31,784 nucleotides of DNA, taken from the UHGV virus genome UHGV-0321443, one strand, 5' to 3'. Positions 1 to 15,412 of this stretch are shown here, one piece after another (the stretch's first letter is position 1; every line of letters starts with the position of its first letter). The stretch comes from a virus. The position numbers were made by a program, and so were the translations under genes. The notes under the pieces are model-generated. The model was not told the origin of the DNA. It was given only the letters and a program-made list of their open reading frames with translations, and did no database searches.

Positions 1-71
1 CGGGTGATTCGTTCAAGTAAAGATTCGGAAGGGCAGCCAGCAACAGGCCACCCTGCAATGGCATATTGCAT
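1..71 (-). CDS. Hypothetical early-left (pL operon) protein, 5' end only; gene continues beyond the window start
   Basis: ATG at 71..69 preceded by AAGGAG with 8-nt spacing on the minus strand; reading frame open to the window edge (MQYAIAGWPVAGCPSESLLERITR...). No family recognised. Confidence 0.35.
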   Translation of the reverse strand, partial: MQYAIAGWPVAGCPSESLLERIT

Positions 72-269
72 GGTGTGCTCCTTATTTATACATAACGAAA
101 AACGCCTCGAGTGAAGCGTTATTGGTATGCATATAAAAAGGCCCTCACACTGGAGGGCAAAGAAGATTTCCAATAATCAGAACAAGTCGGCTCCTGTTTA
201 GTTACGAGCGACATTGCTCCGTGTATTCACTCGTTGGAATGAATACACAGTGCAGTGTTTATTCTGTTG

Positions 270-9240: not shown

Positions 9241-9319
9241 TTTATCCGGGGCTATATTCCTCACACGCCAGCAAAATCTGGCGTCGGGATTGGCGTCCCG
9301 GATAGAAACCGCGACAGAG

Positions 9320-9342
9320 ACACGCCGCGAGCGTGTTTTTTA
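9320..9342 (+). terminator. Rho-independent terminator in the nin region
   Basis: acacgc-cgcga-gcgtgt hairpin followed by tttttt. Confidence 0.55.
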
Positions 9343-9502
9343 TTGTCGTATGCACGCGCACATCTGAATTATGGTGGGCTGTGTGGGGGCGGAGAGATCC
9401 GCGCCGGTCGGTTTCCCGGTTACGCCAACCCTGCACAGTTCACCGCCAGACGATTGGCGTCGTCGGTGGTGAGTCATTTAGAAACCACCGGAGAGCGTCA
9501 CC

Positions 9503-10180
9503 ATGACAACTCAAATTTCTGTCGAAACTCTTTCCCCGATCACCCACAACCAGATCCCCGTTATTACAACTGAACTTCTTGCGCAGTTATACGGAACAAA
9601 AATCAAAAACATTTCGGATAACTTTCTTAACAACACGACGCGATTCGTGGTAGGGAAGCATTACTTTAAAATTGAAAGGAACGAATTACGCGAGTTTAAG
9701 AACAGACCCGAAACAATCGGGTTAGTTGGTAAAAATGCCCGCTCCCTCATCCTCTGGACAGAACGCGGAGCAGCCCGTCACGCCAAAATGCTCGAAACCG
9801 ATCAGGCGTGGGAAGTGTTCGAAAAACTGGAAGACTGCTATTTCAGCCAGTGCGAGAAAAATACTGGCAAACAAGAGAAGAAGCCCAACGGGCTTTCCGC
9901 AAAAGAAACAGACAGCCTTGTTTGGCTGTGGGATTATGCCAACCGCTCACAGGCATTGTTCCGTGAGTTGTATCCCGCATTAAAACTGATTCAGTCTGGC
10001 TATTCCGGCATATGCCACGACTACGGCTATGAGTTCTCGTATATCATCGGGAGGGCGAGGGGCGTTTTAATTAATCACACGCGGGATATAGATATTTATG
10101 AGCCTGACGGGCCGACGAACCTTCTGGCATGGGAAAGGCTTAAGAACAAAGAGTTGCCGCCTTCACTGCATCGCTACTGA
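9503..10180 (+). CDS. Antirepressor-like protein (ORF6N/Bro-N-type N-domain fused to a P22 Ant-type C-terminal domain)
   Basis: C-terminal roughly 100 aa are near-identical to the C-terminus of the Ant-like protein at 30744..31664; N-terminal domain resembles ORF6N-type antirepressor domains. Confidence 0.55.
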
Positions 10181-10222: not shown

Positions 10223-10254
10223 TTGCTGAATTTTCAATATGAGAGGACATGACA

Positions 10255-10977
10255 ATGAATGAGCTGATAAATAGCAGCATCATCAAAATGACAAGCATTG
10301 AAATCGCTGAGTTGGTGGGAAGCCAACACGGTAATGTCAGAATATCAATAGAACGTCTGGCAAAGCGTGGGGTGATTCAACTTCCTCCAATGCAAAAAGT
10401 TGAAAATAAACAAACAATTAGCCCTAACAAATTCACAAGCGTGTATATATTCGAAGGCGAACAAGGTAAGCGAGACAGCATTATTGTCGTCGCTCAGTTG
10501 TCGCCGGAATTCACCGCTCGTCTTGTTGACCGTTGGCGAGAACTCGAAGGGGCAACCGCGAAAATACCACAAACCTTTTCTGAGGCATTGCGCCTTGCGG
10601 CCGACCTTGAAGACCAGAAGGCTGAACTGGAGAAACAGCTTGCTCTCGCAGCACCTAAAGTTGAGTTTGCCGATCGCGTTGGCGAGGCCAGCGGAATTTT
10701 GATTGGAAACTTTGCAAAGGTTGTTGGAATTGGTCCAAACAAACTGTTTGCGTGGATGCGCGATCACAAAATCCTTATTGCTTCAGGTTCCCGGCGCAAT
10801 GTGCCAATGCAGGAATATATGGATCGCGGCTATTTCACAGTGAAAGAAACAGCGGTCAACACAAATCACGGAATACAGATATCGTTCACCACAAAAATCA
10901 CCGGGCGTGGTCAACAGTGGCTGACCAGAAAGCTGCTCGATAACGGAATGCTGAAAGTAACAGGGGAGGCTGCTTAA
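10255..10977 (+). CDS. Rha-family regulatory protein / antirepressor (Rha N-domain with KilAC-type C-domain)
   Basis: N-terminus IKMTSIEIAELVGSQHGNVRISIERL resembles Rha; C-terminal region resembles antirepressor C-domains. ATG at 10255 has better SD spacing (GAGAGGA) than 10249. Confidence 0.55.
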   Translation: MNELINSSIIKMTSIEIAELVGSQHGNVRISIERLAKRGVIQLPPMQKVENKQTISPNKFTSVYIFEGEQGKRDSIIVVAQLSPEFTARLVDRWRELEGATAKIPQTFSEALRLAADLEDQKAELEKQLALAAPKVEFADRVGEASGILIGNFAKVVGIGPNKLFAWMRDHKILIASGSRRNVPMQEYMDRGYFTVKETAVNTNHGIQISFTTKITGRGQQWLTRKLLDNGMLKVTGEAA

Positions 10978-11626: not shown

Positions 11627-11766
11627 ACAAAGCATTCGAACGATATATGCGCCAGCGTTATGGCAATCGCTATGACCTGACGCGAGATGTTGAAGGTTTC
11701 TACTGTAGTGAAATTGTGAAACGAATGTTTGAAGTTTGGTGTCATTGCAAAGGATGGGAGGTCTGA
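11623..11766 (+). CDS. Hypothetical small protein (47 aa) between rusA and the Q-like gene
   Basis: ATGA overlap with the rusA stop and TGATG overlap with the next gene; hand-translated MNKAFERYMRQRYGNRYDL... Position analogous to small genes upstream of Q in DLP12-like prophages. Confidence 0.3.
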   Translation: MNKAFERYMRQRYGNRYDLTRDVEGFYCSEIVKRMFEVWCHCKGWEV

Positions 11767-12380
11767 TGCGGCTAACTCCAGTATTCAGCATGGTTAACTT
11801 CATTAATGACGCGCACTTTCGCCGCGTATGGAGACACCCGAAGAAAACCATCAACTCTAGCCAGAAAGCATGGGTTCATTACATGTTACAGGTATGGGGC
11901 AAGGTTAATACCGGAGATTGCTCTCCAGGTGGTGCAATTAACGTTATCGGTCGTCTGATGATTCGCAGTCAGTGGAGCGATGACAAGGCTAAGCAGATAG
12001 AGTCTGTCGTCATGCGCCTGTACGAAGAAGATGGGCTGCGCGGAGATGAGCTATACAAGAAAGCTCGCGAACTGGTCATTCCTCAATCATCGTTTAGCCA
12101 CATCATCACTCTCGCCAAAGAATCAGATGATGCGGCTTTCGTTGAACGTGTGATGGTTAAAACGTTTCACCGTGAAAGCCCTGTCCGCGATGTAGCTATT
12201 AAGCGATATTGCAATCGCAATTGCACGCAAGATATAGCCAGGATTATTTCTTATATAACAGGTGCTGATATTCAGTATTGTCGTAAGCGAGTGGTGTGGT
12301 GTGAGAAAGTGCTGGAGTCAGAAATGTTTTATGCAATGAAACGAGAATTGGAGAAAGAATTTCCATTAATAGCGGCCTGA
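11766..12380 (+). CDS. Putative late-gene antiterminator (Q-like), assigned by position
   Basis: Last gene before the late intergenic region and lysis cassette; SD GGAGG; Cys-rich C-terminal region. Family not confidently recognised. Confidence 0.45.
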   Translation: MRLTPVFSMVNFINDAHFRRVWRHPKKTINSSQKAWVHYMLQVWGKVNTGDCSPGGAINVIGRLMIRSQWSDDKAKQIESVVMRLYEEDGLRGDELYKKARELVIPQSSFSHIITLAKESDDAAFVERVMVKTFHRESPVRDVAIKRYCNRNCTQDIARIISYITGADIQYCRKRVVWCEKVLESEMFYAMKRELEKEFPLIAA

Positions 12381-12538
12381 ACTGAAATAATTTTGTAAAT
12401 GCGTTGCTTCCGAGAAATGAAAGTGGTATTTTTTGTATATGCTCGGAGCAAAAGCGAACTGAGCAGCGAAATTGAAATCCTGATTTCCCCGGTTGCCGAT
12501 AATATTTAGGGTCGACATACTGGCTAGATTAGGTAAGA

Positions 12539-12566
12539 GCCTCGGCATAAACGTCGGGGCTTTTTT
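12539..12566 (+). terminator. Candidate tR'-like terminator of a short late leader transcript
   Basis: gcctcggc-ataaac-gtcggggc hairpin (two G-U pairs) followed by tttttt, about 160 bp downstream of the Q-like stop. Confidence 0.4.
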
Positions 12567-12857
12567 GTTTGCACAACAGGTAAGTGCATTTGTAGAGTTC
12601 GACTCTCTACCGTGGGCTTTTTCCCGCGATGCGAGCCATAAGTGCTCTTTCCGTTGTGCTGAATTAAGCGAATGCCGGAAGCAGAACCGGATCACCAAAT
12701 GCGTGCAGGCGTCATCGCCGCCCAGCAACAGCACAACCCAAACTGAGCCGTAGCCACTGGCTATCCTGAATTCATCAGTGATAGTTACGCTGCGGCCTTC
12801 TTTTTTCCCCTTCCCAATATAAGAACTACGCAATCCGTTACTGGCGGAGGCGTTGCT

Positions 12858-13073
12858 ATGAAATCAATGGACAAAATCTCAACTGGCATTGCCTACGGAA
12901 CATCCGCTGGTAGTGCGGGATACTGGTTTTTGCAGTGGTTGGATCAGGTCAGTCCATCACAGTGGGCTGCGATTGGTGTACTGGGGAGTCTGGTTCTGGG
13001 CTTCCTGACATATCTGACTAACCTGTATTTCAAAATCAGAGAGGACCGTCGTAAGGCTGCACGGGGAGAGTAA
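12858..13073 (+). CDS. S: Pinholin, phage 21 S21 type (class II holin with dual-start motif)
   Basis: 71 aa; [32 protein letters not shown]... matches phage 21 S21 as I recall it; Met1/Met4 dual starts at 12858 and 12867; SD GGAGG. Confidence 0.9.
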
Positions 13074-13077
13074 TTCA

Positions 13078-13428
13078 ATGACTCAAAACTATGAACTGAT
13101 TGTGAAAGGGATCCGCAATTTTGAGAATAAAGTTACGGTAACTTTAGCGTTACGGGACAAAAAACGCTTTGACGGTGAAATTTTTGACCTGGACATCTCG
13201 CTGGACCGTGTTGAAGGTGCCGCGCTGGGGTTTTATGAGGCAGCAGCCAGAAGGAGCATCAGACAGGTCTTCCTGGATGTTGCTGCCGGGTTATGTGAAG
13301 GGGATGAGCAGTCGCCGGAAAAGCGCCCCGTAATTTTAGAGGCGCAGAATGTGTGGATAACCTACAAAGTAAAGCTACCAGGAAGAATTACTGGTTCTCT
13401 GAAGACTCCTCCGGAATCACAACCTTAA
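13078..13428 (+). CDS. Hypothetical protein (116 aa) lying between holin and endolysin
   Basis: Six-frame ORF starting 5 nt after the holin stop; no recognisable motif; possibly related to DUF1327-type genes seen at this position in some E. coli prophages. Confidence 0.45.
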   Translation: MTQNYELIVKGIRNFENKVTVTLALRDKKRFDGEIFDLDISLDRVEGAALGFYEAAARRSIRQVFLDVAAGLCEGDEQSPEKRPVILEAQNVWITYKVKLPGRITGSLKTPPESQP

Positions 13429-13491
13429 GTCACTGACCGGAACAGATAAACCTGTCCGTGGGCAGAAACCGATAAATCCTGATAAATATCC

Positions 13492-14025
13492 ATGAACGCA
13501 AAAATCAGATACGGCCTGTCGGCTGCCGTTCTGGCACTGATTGCCGTCGGTGCGCCCGCGCCTGATATTCTCGACCAGTTTCTGGATGAAAAAGAAGGTA
13601 ACCACACAACGGCATACCGCGATGGTTCCGGCATCTGGACCATCTGTCGGGGTGCCACGATGGTGGATGGAAAACCCGTTTTTCCCGGTATGAAACTGTC
13701 GAAGGAAAAATGCGACCAGGTCAACGCCATTGAGCGTGATAAGGCGCTGGCATGGGTGGAGCGCAATATTAAAGTACCACTGACCGAACCACAAAAAGCG
13801 GGTATCGCGTCATTTTGTCCCTATAACATTGGCCCCGGTAAGTGTTTTCCATCGACGTTTTATAAGCGGCTGAATGCCGGTGATCGTAAGGGGGCATGCG
13901 AAGCGATTCGCTGGTGGATTAAGGATGGTGGGCGCGATTGCCGCATACGTTCAAATAACTGCTATGGGCAAGTTATTCGTCGTGACCAGGAAAACGCATT
14001 AGCCTGTTGGGGGATAGAGCAGTGA
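13492..14025 (+). CDS. R: SAR endolysin (T4-lysozyme-like muramidase with N-terminal signal-anchor-release domain)
   Basis: N-terminal hydrophobic, Gly/Ala-rich segment ([17 protein letters not shown]) followed by a lysozyme-like domain; position between holin and Rz. Confidence 0.8.
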
Positions 14026-14459
14026 GCAGAGTCGCCGCGATTATTTATGCTCTGGTTATCTGCACCATCGTCTGCCTGTCATGGGCTGTTAATCATTACC
14101 GTGATAACGCCATCGCCTACAAAGACCAGCGCGATAAAGCCACATCTATCATCTCTGATATGCAGAAGCGTCAACGTGATGTAGCTGAACTCGACGCCAG
14201 ATACACAAAGGAGCTTGCTGATGCTAACGCGACTATCGAAAGTCTCCGTGCTGATGTTTCTGCTGGGCGTAAGCGCCTGCAAGTCGCCGCCACCTGTGCA
14301 AAGTCAACGACCGGAGCCAGCGGCATGGGCAATGGAGAAAGCCCAAGACTTACAGCAGATGCTGAACTCAATTATTACCGTCTCCGAAGTGGAATCGACA
14401 GGATAACCGCGCAGGTTAACTACCTGCAGGAATACATCAGGACGCAATGCCTGAAATAA
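14022..14459 (+). CDS. Rz: Rz i-spanin
   Basis: [38 protein letters not shown]... closely resembles lambda Rz; GTG start overlaps the endolysin stop (GTGA). Confidence 0.85.
14215..14406 (+). CDS. Rz1: Rz1 o-spanin (lipoprotein), embedded in the +1 frame of Rz
   Basis: Signal peptide with lipobox (LLGVSAC) followed by a Pro-rich segment ([13 protein letters not shown]); wholly inside Rz as in lambda. Confidence 0.7.
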
Positions 14460-14660: not shown

Positions 14661-15158
14661 ATGAAATCATTAACCCTCTTCAATCAACCAATTCGTATCG
14701 GTGAAGATGGCATGATCTGCCTCACTGATATGTGGAAAGCCAGTGGTAAAAGTGAATCTGAATCGCCTTACCACTACCTGCGAAACAAGCAGACCAAAGA
14801 GTTCTTAGCCGAGCTGGAGAAAAACCACGAATCTGTGGTTTTTACTGAGCGCGGTGTACACGGTGGAACATATGGCGGGAAGTTTGTTGCTTATGATTAT
14901 GCAGCATGGCTAAACCCCGGATTTAAATATGCAGCCTATAAAGTCCTGGATGACTACTTCACCGGAGAACTTCAGCATCGCAACAGCTTAAGTGCGCAGC
15001 TCAATATGAAGTGTCATGAGTTTGATCAGAAAAAAGATATGGCGAGCTTCTGTGGACAAGGGCTGGCGGCATGGCGCTATACGAAGCCAGTGTTGGTCGC
15101 TGAGATTAACTCCCTGGCTAACCAGCTGCAGATAACGATCCCCGGGCTTCCGGGATGA
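14661..15158 (+). CDS. KilA-N domain protein
   Basis: N-terminal region resembles KilA-N DNA-binding domains; lies between the lysis-cassette terminators and cos, so probably a moron with its own promoter. Confidence 0.5.
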   Translation: MKSLTLFNQPIRIGEDGMICLTDMWKASGKSESESPYHYLRNKQTKEFLAELEKNHESVVFTERGVHGGTYGGKFVAYDYAAWLNPGFKYAAYKVLDDYFTGELQHRNSLSAQLNMKCHEFDQKKDMASFCGQGLAAWRYTKPVLVAEINSLANQLQITIPGLPG

Positions 15159-15412
15159 GTGATCGTGTCATTGAATGCGCTTCCAGAGCGGGGCGCGACT
15201 TCTCAGAGTTCATGAAAGGCGAGAAGGGCATGATGGAAGCATTGGCCTCGGTGGATGAGTTTGGCGAGCAGCTGCGCCTCAACGGCTGTGTCAATCATCA
15301 CTTTGTTAGCTACATGATGCGGAACTCGATCATGCAGGCATTCATGGACATGGCAAAAGCCGAGAGGAAAGAAGAGCGCCGGCGTAAGCGAGCGGAAGCA
15401 AAAGCGAAATAG
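15155..15412 (+). CDS. Hypothetical protein (85 aa), translationally coupled to the KilA-N gene
   Basis: ATGA overlap with the upstream stop; highly charged C-terminus (RKEERRRKRAEAKAK). Confidence 0.4.
   Translation: MSDRVIECASRAGRDFSEFMKGEKGMMEALASVDEFGEQLRLNGCVNHHFVSYMMRNSIMQAFMDMAKAERKEERRRKRAEAKAK

Follow-up and report, generated by a model that had tools for sequence, protein, structure and literature searches.

The virus genome UHGV-0321443, the whole 31,784-nt stretch of which is referred to here as the window, carries a 116-codon open reading frame (ORF) on its plus strand at positions 13078-13428, between the pinholin gene S and the gene R for a signal-anchor-release (SAR) endolysin. 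The ORF is ydfR, an already known and very common prophage gene, the product of which belongs to the YdfR/DUF1327 family (Pfam PF07041). Our analyses show that the gene is functional and encodes a small cytoplasmic protein that is soluble, and that ydfR forms an optional accessory cassette, which in lambdoid prophages of Escherichia is inserted exactly where S and R meet in lysis cassettes of the S21 type; as judged from the comparison of cassettes with and without it, lysis does not depend on ydfR. With regard to function, we tentatively favour a role as a late accessory gene that is not part of the lysis machinery, with a core domain that may tune RNA processing or decay by binding RNA and/or the catalytic half of the RNase E of the host.

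Identity of ydfR and its place in S21-type cassettes

The gene starts with ATG at 13078 and ends with TAA at 13426-13428; four bases (TTCA, 13074-13077) separate it from the stop codon of S, and a Shine-Dalgarno sequence, GGGGAGAG, read from the sequence, lies at 13063-13070 (+), within the 3' end of S. The first-pass annotation had described the gene with this extent, with a start 5 nt past the last base of the S stop codon and with a product lacking a transmembrane segment, all of which we confirm (the 19-residue Kyte-Doolittle hydropathy maximum is 0.69). Its statement that the protein has no recognisable motif does not hold; the product is a textbook DUF1327/YdfR protein, which scores 140.7 bits against PF07041 (cut-off 25, E 1.7e-41, profile positions 1-92 of 93), and the relatedness to DUF1327 that it had proposed to look for is thus established. 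The protein also matches PHROG 2091 and 406 (both with E about 1e-66), as well as PHROG 1085, the functions of which are unannotated, and the DNA is 99.7% identical to RefSeq genes named 'YdfR family protein'. DUF1327 was the only family matched in Pfam, no holin family was matched in Pfam or PHROGs, there were no matches in the PDB sequence search or in NCBIfam, and no PADLOC defence model was matched at E <= 1.

Nor is the arrangement unusual, as had been implied. In the Qin prophage of E. coli K-12 the gene order is essQ (S21-type holin), ydfR (b1555), rrrQ (lysozyme) and rzpQ/rzoQ, and ydfR is annotated at the same place in plaque-forming phages (mEp460, PhiR49_2 and the vB_EcoS/M series). 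Among 93 Escherichia-type ydfR loci, which were fetched from IMG/VR, GTDB genomes and GenBank phages, all 93 have an S21-type holin gene directly upstream and a RrrQ-type lysozyme gene downstream, with a gap between S and ydfR of 4 nt in 91 and 3 nt in the other two. Given this constancy, the Qin order and the naming in RefSeq, ydfR is the canonical, already annotated occupant of the S/R position. Related DNA is present in 4104 of 5426 complete E. coli genomes (megablast; about 76%), in up to 8 places per genome; the family as a whole is narrow and enterobacterial, with 89 clusters in a profile search of 1.84 billion representative proteins. As a sequence feature the window gene therefore adds nothing new, its gene, family and position being annotated in K-12 and in thousands of genomes. 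It is, however, among the commonest of E. coli prophage genes and is located in a lysis cassette that ranks with the best studied, yet has no demonstrated function: a 2024 y-ome survey lists it as uncharacterised (PMC11551758), our literature search found no paper linking ydfR with holin or essQ biology, phage induction or lysis, and the single paper found for DUF1327 mentions the name only.

A sharp mosaic boundary coincides with the 4-nt S/ydfR junction (12858-13428); ydfR has matches of 99.7% DNA identity in hundreds of complete E. coli genomes, and S, with its S21-identical product, has none above 95.8% there. A foreign origin of ydfR on the basis of its composition was considered and discarded, the difference in GC content from its neighbours (47.3% versus 49.5-52.2%) being too small.

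The presence of ydfR at this junction is optional. In a tblastn search of a phage collection, 438 records have an S21-type holin and 101 have YdfR, i.e. about 77% of the records with such a holin lack it; the proportions differ between Shiga toxin (Stx) phage types, with YdfR in 2 and the holin in 124 of the Stx2a-phage records, compared with 41 and 47, respectively, for Stx1a phages. (An S:ydfR ratio obtained by megablast in complete E. coli genomes was rejected because divergent S alleles were missed; the tblastn counts were used instead.) Phage 21 itself, as the first-pass annotation had stated, has no gene between S and R, which end and start, respectively, at position 40081 of its annotated genome. 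In phage POCJ13, which lacks ydfR, an R gene encoding a protein 90% identical to that of the window starts 4 nt after the S stop codon, behind the same GGGGAGAG, and ydfR therefore fills the exact slot that R has elsewhere. The comparison thus shows that ydfR takes the Shine-Dalgarno sequence and the 4-nt coupled start used by R in other cassettes, with R being shifted behind a conserved leader of its own. In addition, near-identical YdfR alleles occur together with S alleles that are 79%, 86% or 99-100% identical in protein sequence; this lack of correspondence speaks against co-evolution of the two proteins as a pair.

The YdfR protein consists of a conserved core and an exchangeable tail. 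The N-terminal core (residues 1-75; 13078-13302, +) is modelled by AlphaFold2 as three β-strands (residues 5-14, 18-27 and 34-43) followed by a 25-residue helix (residues 50-74) that bears a Y53-E54 motif, with predicted local distance difference test (pLDDT) values of 76-91 over this block (model m3dcd82ea3842); the mean pLDDT was 58 for a first model and 68 for a second one made with a deeper alignment, to which the stand-alone homologues described below had been added. Structural matches to the RNase E binder Dip of phage phiKZ and to double-stranded RNA-binding domains became weaker with the better model, were not significant and are not used as evidence here. Across 47 sequences, with identities down to 17-25%, E6, L7, V9, Y53, E54 and A57 are near-invariant, and all six are present in the window protein. 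The C-terminal module (residues 76-116; 13303-13428, +) has pLDDT values below 50 and is swappable between family members: similarity within the family covers residues 1 to ~75, beyond which the tails diverge, giving total lengths of 103 (K-12), 114-116, 169, 176, 183, 206, 263 and 268 residues. Stand-alone homologues of 72-86 residues, with 17-39% identity, comprise the core only, are likewise assigned to DUF1327 by Pfam and have only this core in common with the window protein.

K-12 YdfR (P76160) shares with the window protein its Pfam family, its position and the 4-nt gap after the holin gene, and is 80% identical (95% similar) to it over residues 1-74. It differs in being 103 residues long, with an unrelated C-terminal stretch of 30 residues and a stop codon that overlaps the rrrQ start, whereas the 116-residue window protein ends in a 'CEGDE...LKTPPESQP' module and its gene is followed by a 63-nt leader before R. 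The YdfRs of coliphages mEp460, PhiR49_2, vB_EcoS-689R5/611R1, the Stx1a/Stx2c phages and Stx2 phage 86 are products of the same gene at the same place, with the window protein being 97-98% identical to those of the vB_Eco series and 61% identical to the Stx-phage forms.

Conservation in related prophages and a coding signature, the lack of which the first-pass annotation had regarded as telling against the gene, are both evident. The frame is open in 80/80 close homologues, and the ratio of nonsynonymous to synonymous substitution rates (dN/dS; pairwise Nei-Gojobori, 54 distinct coding sequences) is about 0.28-0.31 for codons 1-75; among sequences with the window-type C-terminal module, the values are 0.21-0.26 (codons 1-75) and 0.15 (codons 76-112). 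Judged from these codon comparisons, ydfR is under purifying selection. The window allele has two uncommon residues, Gly51 (codon 51, 13228-13230), in place of the Glu present in at least 90% of close homologues, and Val98 (codon 98, 13369-13371), in place of the Gly present in most. Gly51 directly precedes the conserved F-Y-E motif; the position is variable in distant homologues, and the effect of the substitution is uncertain.

A possible late role involving RNase E or RNA

On the reading that we tentatively prefer, ydfR would be made late, only on the Q-dependent transcript, and its product would stand outside the pinholin, SAR-endolysin and spanin machinery. Through its core of three strands plus a helix, the protein would bind RNA and/or the N-terminal, catalytic half of the host enzyme RNase E, and would thereby adjust RNA processing or decay in the late phase of phage growth; the 40-residue C-terminal module would be an exchangeable add-on.

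Expression of ydfR only late, on an S-ydfR-R-Rz/Rz1 transcript, is suggested by three features of the region. A Q-like late antiterminator gene (11766-12380, +; phrog_753 'anti-termination protein Q-like', E 2e-67; no Pfam family matched), the start codon of which was picked by eye inside the ORF at 11736-12380, lies upstream. It is followed by a tR'-like intrinsic terminator (12535-12564, +), with a 12-bp stem including 6 G-C pairs and a T-run; its function is inferred, and its position agrees with the pR'/tR' layout annotated in phage 21. Finally, a consensus scan of the plus strand from 12565 to 14436, i.e. from before S to the end of Rz, found no sigma-70-like promoter and no intrinsic terminator, although weak or alternative-sigma promoters could escape such a scan. 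Together with the Shine-Dalgarno sequence and the 4-nt gap, the Q-like gene and the tR'-like terminator fit the co-expression with the lysis genes that the first-pass annotation had proposed. Late-only expression also agrees with the near absence of RNA-seq reads for ydfR in growing K-12 cells (PMC13232886). In one study, ydfR of strain CFT073 was transcribed preferentially by the sigma-S holoenzyme in vitro (PMC3141248).

The RNase E lead comes from work on the K-12 protein. A two-hybrid screen that had RNase G (Rng), a paralogue of RNase E, as the bait yielded residues 1-72 of K-12 YdfR three times (Göpel et al. 2026, PMC13232886), and with RNase E constructs this fragment produced a stronger signal; the full-length protein interacts with Rne1-597, Rne1-598 co-elutes with Strep-YdfR, and the Strep-YdfR eluate holds large amounts of DNase-resistant nucleic acid (PMC13232886). 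Given the 80% identity to K-12 YdfR over a conserved and well-modelled domain, binding to the N-terminal half of RNase E and co-purification with RNA may extend to the window protein.

Several observations weigh against this reading. The link to RNase E comes from one study, of the K-12 orthologue, under overproduction, in which over-produced YdfR altered few transcripts and caused no growth arrest (PMC13232886). RNA could bridge YdfR and RNase E, since the co-purification was without a nuclease-treated repeat, and the YdfR domain is mildly acidic (isoelectric point 5.3), unlike a classic RNA binder. Furthermore, in Escherichia ydfR is found only directly behind S21-type holin genes, with the near-constant gap described above, and the Keio ydfR mutant was scored as envelope-leaky, a result given only in a supplement (Paradis-Bleau et al. 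2014, PMC3879167); this phenotype could instead arise from polarity on, or read-through into, the endolysin gene rrrQ.

Phage-encoded modulators of RNase E include the T7 gp0.7 kinase and T4 Srd. If the K-12 result transfers, YdfR would be functionally analogous to Dip (gp37) of phiKZ in that it, too, is phage-encoded and makes contact with the RNase E of the host (PMC13232886). The analogy extends no further than function: the contact of YdfR has been mapped to the N-terminal catalytic half of RNase E and that of Dip is with the C-terminal scaffold, the two proteins have no sequence relationship, and no inhibitory effect has been shown for YdfR. Should the RNase E/RNA lead prove true in lytic growth, it would mean that temperate coliphages, including Stx1 and Stx2c phages, manipulate host RNA decay, and the swappable tails and convergent partner genes of the family, as described below, would merit dedicated study.

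Distant homologues, the hypervariable slot and other explanations

Core-only DUF1327 genes, with products of 75-94 residues, occur outside lysis cassettes in Citrobacter, Enterobacter, Cronobacter and other contigs. Those of Citrobacter lie between tape-measure and distal-tail genes (loci L090-L092, 3501-4053); others lie between tail genes M and L (L103 and L104, 3001-~3530) or I and J (L105, 3001-~3530), and in Enterobacter, Cronobacter and L106 (3001-~3530) they lie among glycosyltransferase genes downstream of the lysis genes. Further distant homologues are at 3501-4029 in L093 and 3501-4017 in L095/L096. In 7/7 distant-homologue contexts, a convergent ORF for a protein of 74-95 residues lies within 15 nt of the end of the DUF1327 gene or overlaps it. 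In five of the seven this partner is phrog_10490, which is found at three insertion sites (tape measure/distal tail, tail M/L and the glycosyltransferase region), and it thus looks as though both genes are transferred together.

Escherichia cassettes have a hypervariable slot between the ydfR core and the R leader. Nothing is inserted there in the window type (74/91 loci), the slot of the window being at 13417-13491. In other Escherichia loci, including several of the coliphages named above, this slot holds C-terminal extensions of YdfR (to 169-268 residues) and/or convergent minus-strand ORFs, which belong to PHROG 2572, 2411, 1853 and 25324, or a 210-residue ORF of no family; examples are L098 (2817-3131, -), L099 (2458-2718, -), L101 (2244-2540, -), L002/L089 and L100. 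Homology among the convergent partner ORFs was sought by BLASTP and profile search, and only the phrog_10490 set proved to be related; at that sensitivity the Escherichia slot ORFs are unrelated to phrog_10490 and to each other, and they match no Pfam family. As the window has neither extension nor convergent ORF, this cargo concerns the family rather than the window ORF.

These findings raise the possibility, which we regard as doubtful, that the window gene is the remnant of a mobile two-gene cassette, i.e. moron-type cargo of benefit in conflicts between phages or between phage and host, such as through counter-defence, exclusion or lysogen fitness, from which the convergent partner has been lost. 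The regular occurrence of the partner in distant contexts, the recurrence of phrog_10490 at three sites, the filling of the Escherichia slot with extensions or with convergent ORFs of at least four unrelated PHROGs, the narrowness of the family and the presence or absence of ydfR among otherwise similar cassettes are all consistent with such an origin. In the window, however, ydfR comes without a partner ORF and without its own promoter or terminator, there is no PADLOC match to suggest defence, and the K-12 gene shows next to no expression in growing lysogens (PMC13232886). Moreover, the solo 116-residue form is the commonest among the fetched loci (74/91, of which 73 have the exact geometry of the window) and is under purifying selection, from which it follows that it functions alone. 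A cassette origin does not conflict with the RNase E mechanism, and both could hold.

The first-pass annotation had suggested that the gene could be a lysis regulator or a moron. Both stay candidates, although an accessory cassette agrees better with the comparison than a lysis component does. ydfR shows the presence/absence polymorphism at a precise junction of otherwise collinear phages that is expected of a moron, but the consensus scan gave no independent promoter or terminator for it, and the near-silence of the K-12 gene does not match the expression in the lysogen that, with such signals, defines morons in the strict sense (such as bor, lom and stx).

A regulatory role would be that of a soluble, cytoplasmic antiholin or endolysin chaperone for S21-type cassettes, which is produced in parallel with the pinholin and modulates pinholin triggering or the release or activation of the SAR endolysin. 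Its position makes this proposal attractive: in Escherichia ydfR always directly follows an S21-type holin gene, with translation from a Shine-Dalgarno sequence inside S, always precedes a RrrQ-type endolysin gene, and the Keio ydfR mutant was positive with chlorophenol red-β-D-galactopyranoside, i.e. envelope-leaky, in two conditions (PMC3879167). We nevertheless consider it unlikely, and less likely than the RNase E lead. YdfR has no membrane segment, at least one of which is expected of a holin or antiholin; phage 21 and most other phages with an S21-type holin manage without YdfR, and the R allele found behind ydfR works directly behind S in POCJ13. YdfR alleles do not follow those of S, in other genera the core domain occurs beside tail or glycosyltransferase genes rather than in lysis cassettes, our literature search found no paper connecting ydfR with holins, and the Keio phenotype may stem from read-through into rrrQ. 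P1 LydB is a small, non-membrane holin antagonist encoded immediately downstream of its holin gene (lydA-lydB). The analogy with ydfR is one of position only, ydfR being optional among S21 cassettes and its product matching DUF1327 alone.

A broader and more speculative proposal combines the preferred RNase E/RNA reading with the variability of the slot. The DUF1327 core would be a late RNase E/RNA adaptor, and its swapping tails and partner genes would mark a previously undescribed hypervariable conflict locus, for counter-defence or exclusion, that hops between late-operon junctions, these being S/R in Escherichia and the tail-gene and glycosyltransferase sites in Citrobacter, Enterobacter and Cronobacter, with the window gene as a minimal solo form; we think it improbable that all of this is correct.

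It is also conceivable, but very improbable, that ydfR acts in cis as a spacer, the insertion uncoupling translation of R from that of S and a weak leader altering the S:R ratio, with the protein being incidental. Cassettes without ydfR do place R behind the Shine-Dalgarno sequence embedded in S (GGGGAGAG-TAA-4 nt-ATG), whereas in those with ydfR the leader before R is AT-rich and near-invariant and shows no obvious Shine-Dalgarno sequence. The selection on both halves of the protein, the conservation of the domain down to about 25% identity in other genera and the overlap of the ydfR stop with the R start in K-12 Qin, which retains coupling, are not as expected for a spacer. That the ORF is spurious, or decaying and functionless, as the cryptic nature of the K-12 Qin prophage and the unusual Gly51 of the window allele might suggest, is effectively refuted by the Pfam match, the conserved open frame, the dN/dS values and the presence of ydfR in inducible, plaque-forming phages (mEp460, the PhiR and vB_Eco series).

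The surrounding late operon and other features of the window

The S gene (12858-13073, +) encodes an S21-type class II holin (Pfam Phage_holin_2_1, E 8.6e-36; 19-residue Kyte-Doolittle maximum 1.72) that is 100% identical to S21 of phage 21 (OL657228), with the Met1/Met4 dual start being kept. The window and phage 21 also share the same operon logic of Q, pR', tR' and lysis genes. They differ in that phage 21 has no ydfR, its R21 (165 residues) gene abutting S, and in that two tRNA genes (tRNA-Asn and tRNA-Thr) lie upstream of S in phage 21; in the window there is no tRNA gene and no Rfam match in the ~290 nt from the tR'-like terminator to S. The Q-like antiterminator of the window is common to only 2 of the fetched loci.

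R (13492-14025, +) encodes an endolysin of the T4-lysozyme family (Pfam Phage_lysozyme, E 1.4e-24), of the RrrQ/Stx-phage allele type. It is 94% identical to K-12 RrrQ, 90% to R of POCJ13 and 34% to R21. As would fit a SAR endolysin, it has a hydrophobic segment at the N terminus, with a 19-residue Kyte-Doolittle maximum of 1.87 at residue 9. The untranslated leader before R (13429-13491, 63 nt, +) is AT-rich, and its last ~25 nt (CCGATAAATCCTGATAAATATCC), which include a GATAAAT direct repeat, are identical in nearly all non-Qin ydfR cassettes, whatever separates ydfR from R. In four Qin-type leader variants (8/91 loci) and in L004, only the last 10-20 nt remain, ATAAATAT(C/A)(C/T); in Qin these bases code for the C terminus of YdfR, the ydfR stop codon overlapping the R start.

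Downstream of R, the gene for the i-spanin Rz (14022-14459, +; Pfam Phage_lysis, E 4.2e-36) begins with a GTG that overlaps the R stop codon, and the gene for the o-spanin Rz1, with the lipobox VSAC, is embedded in it in the +1 frame (about 14221-14406); the start codons of both were inferred from those of phage 21. Two genes, for a KilA-N/ORF11CD3 protein (14661-15158, +) and an 85-residue PHROG 875 protein (15155-15412, +), occupy the interval from Rz to the terminase genes in the window; in lambda and phage 21 this is the place of bor, which is on the other strand.

Elsewhere in the window, the region 9252-9450 (+) matches the Rfam families isrK (78 bits), C4 antisense RNA (64 bits) and its a1/b1 target (51 bits), just upstream of antirepressor-type ORFs at 9503-10180 and 10249-10977 (with ORF6N/P22_AR_C and Rha/ANT domains); these elements and genes together correspond to a P1/P7-style, C4-controlled antirepressor module in a lambdoid early-right region. 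At the left edge of the window, a cIII-like gene is suggested by a Lambda cIII thermoregulator element (Rfam RF01804, 88.5 bits) at 26-84 (-).

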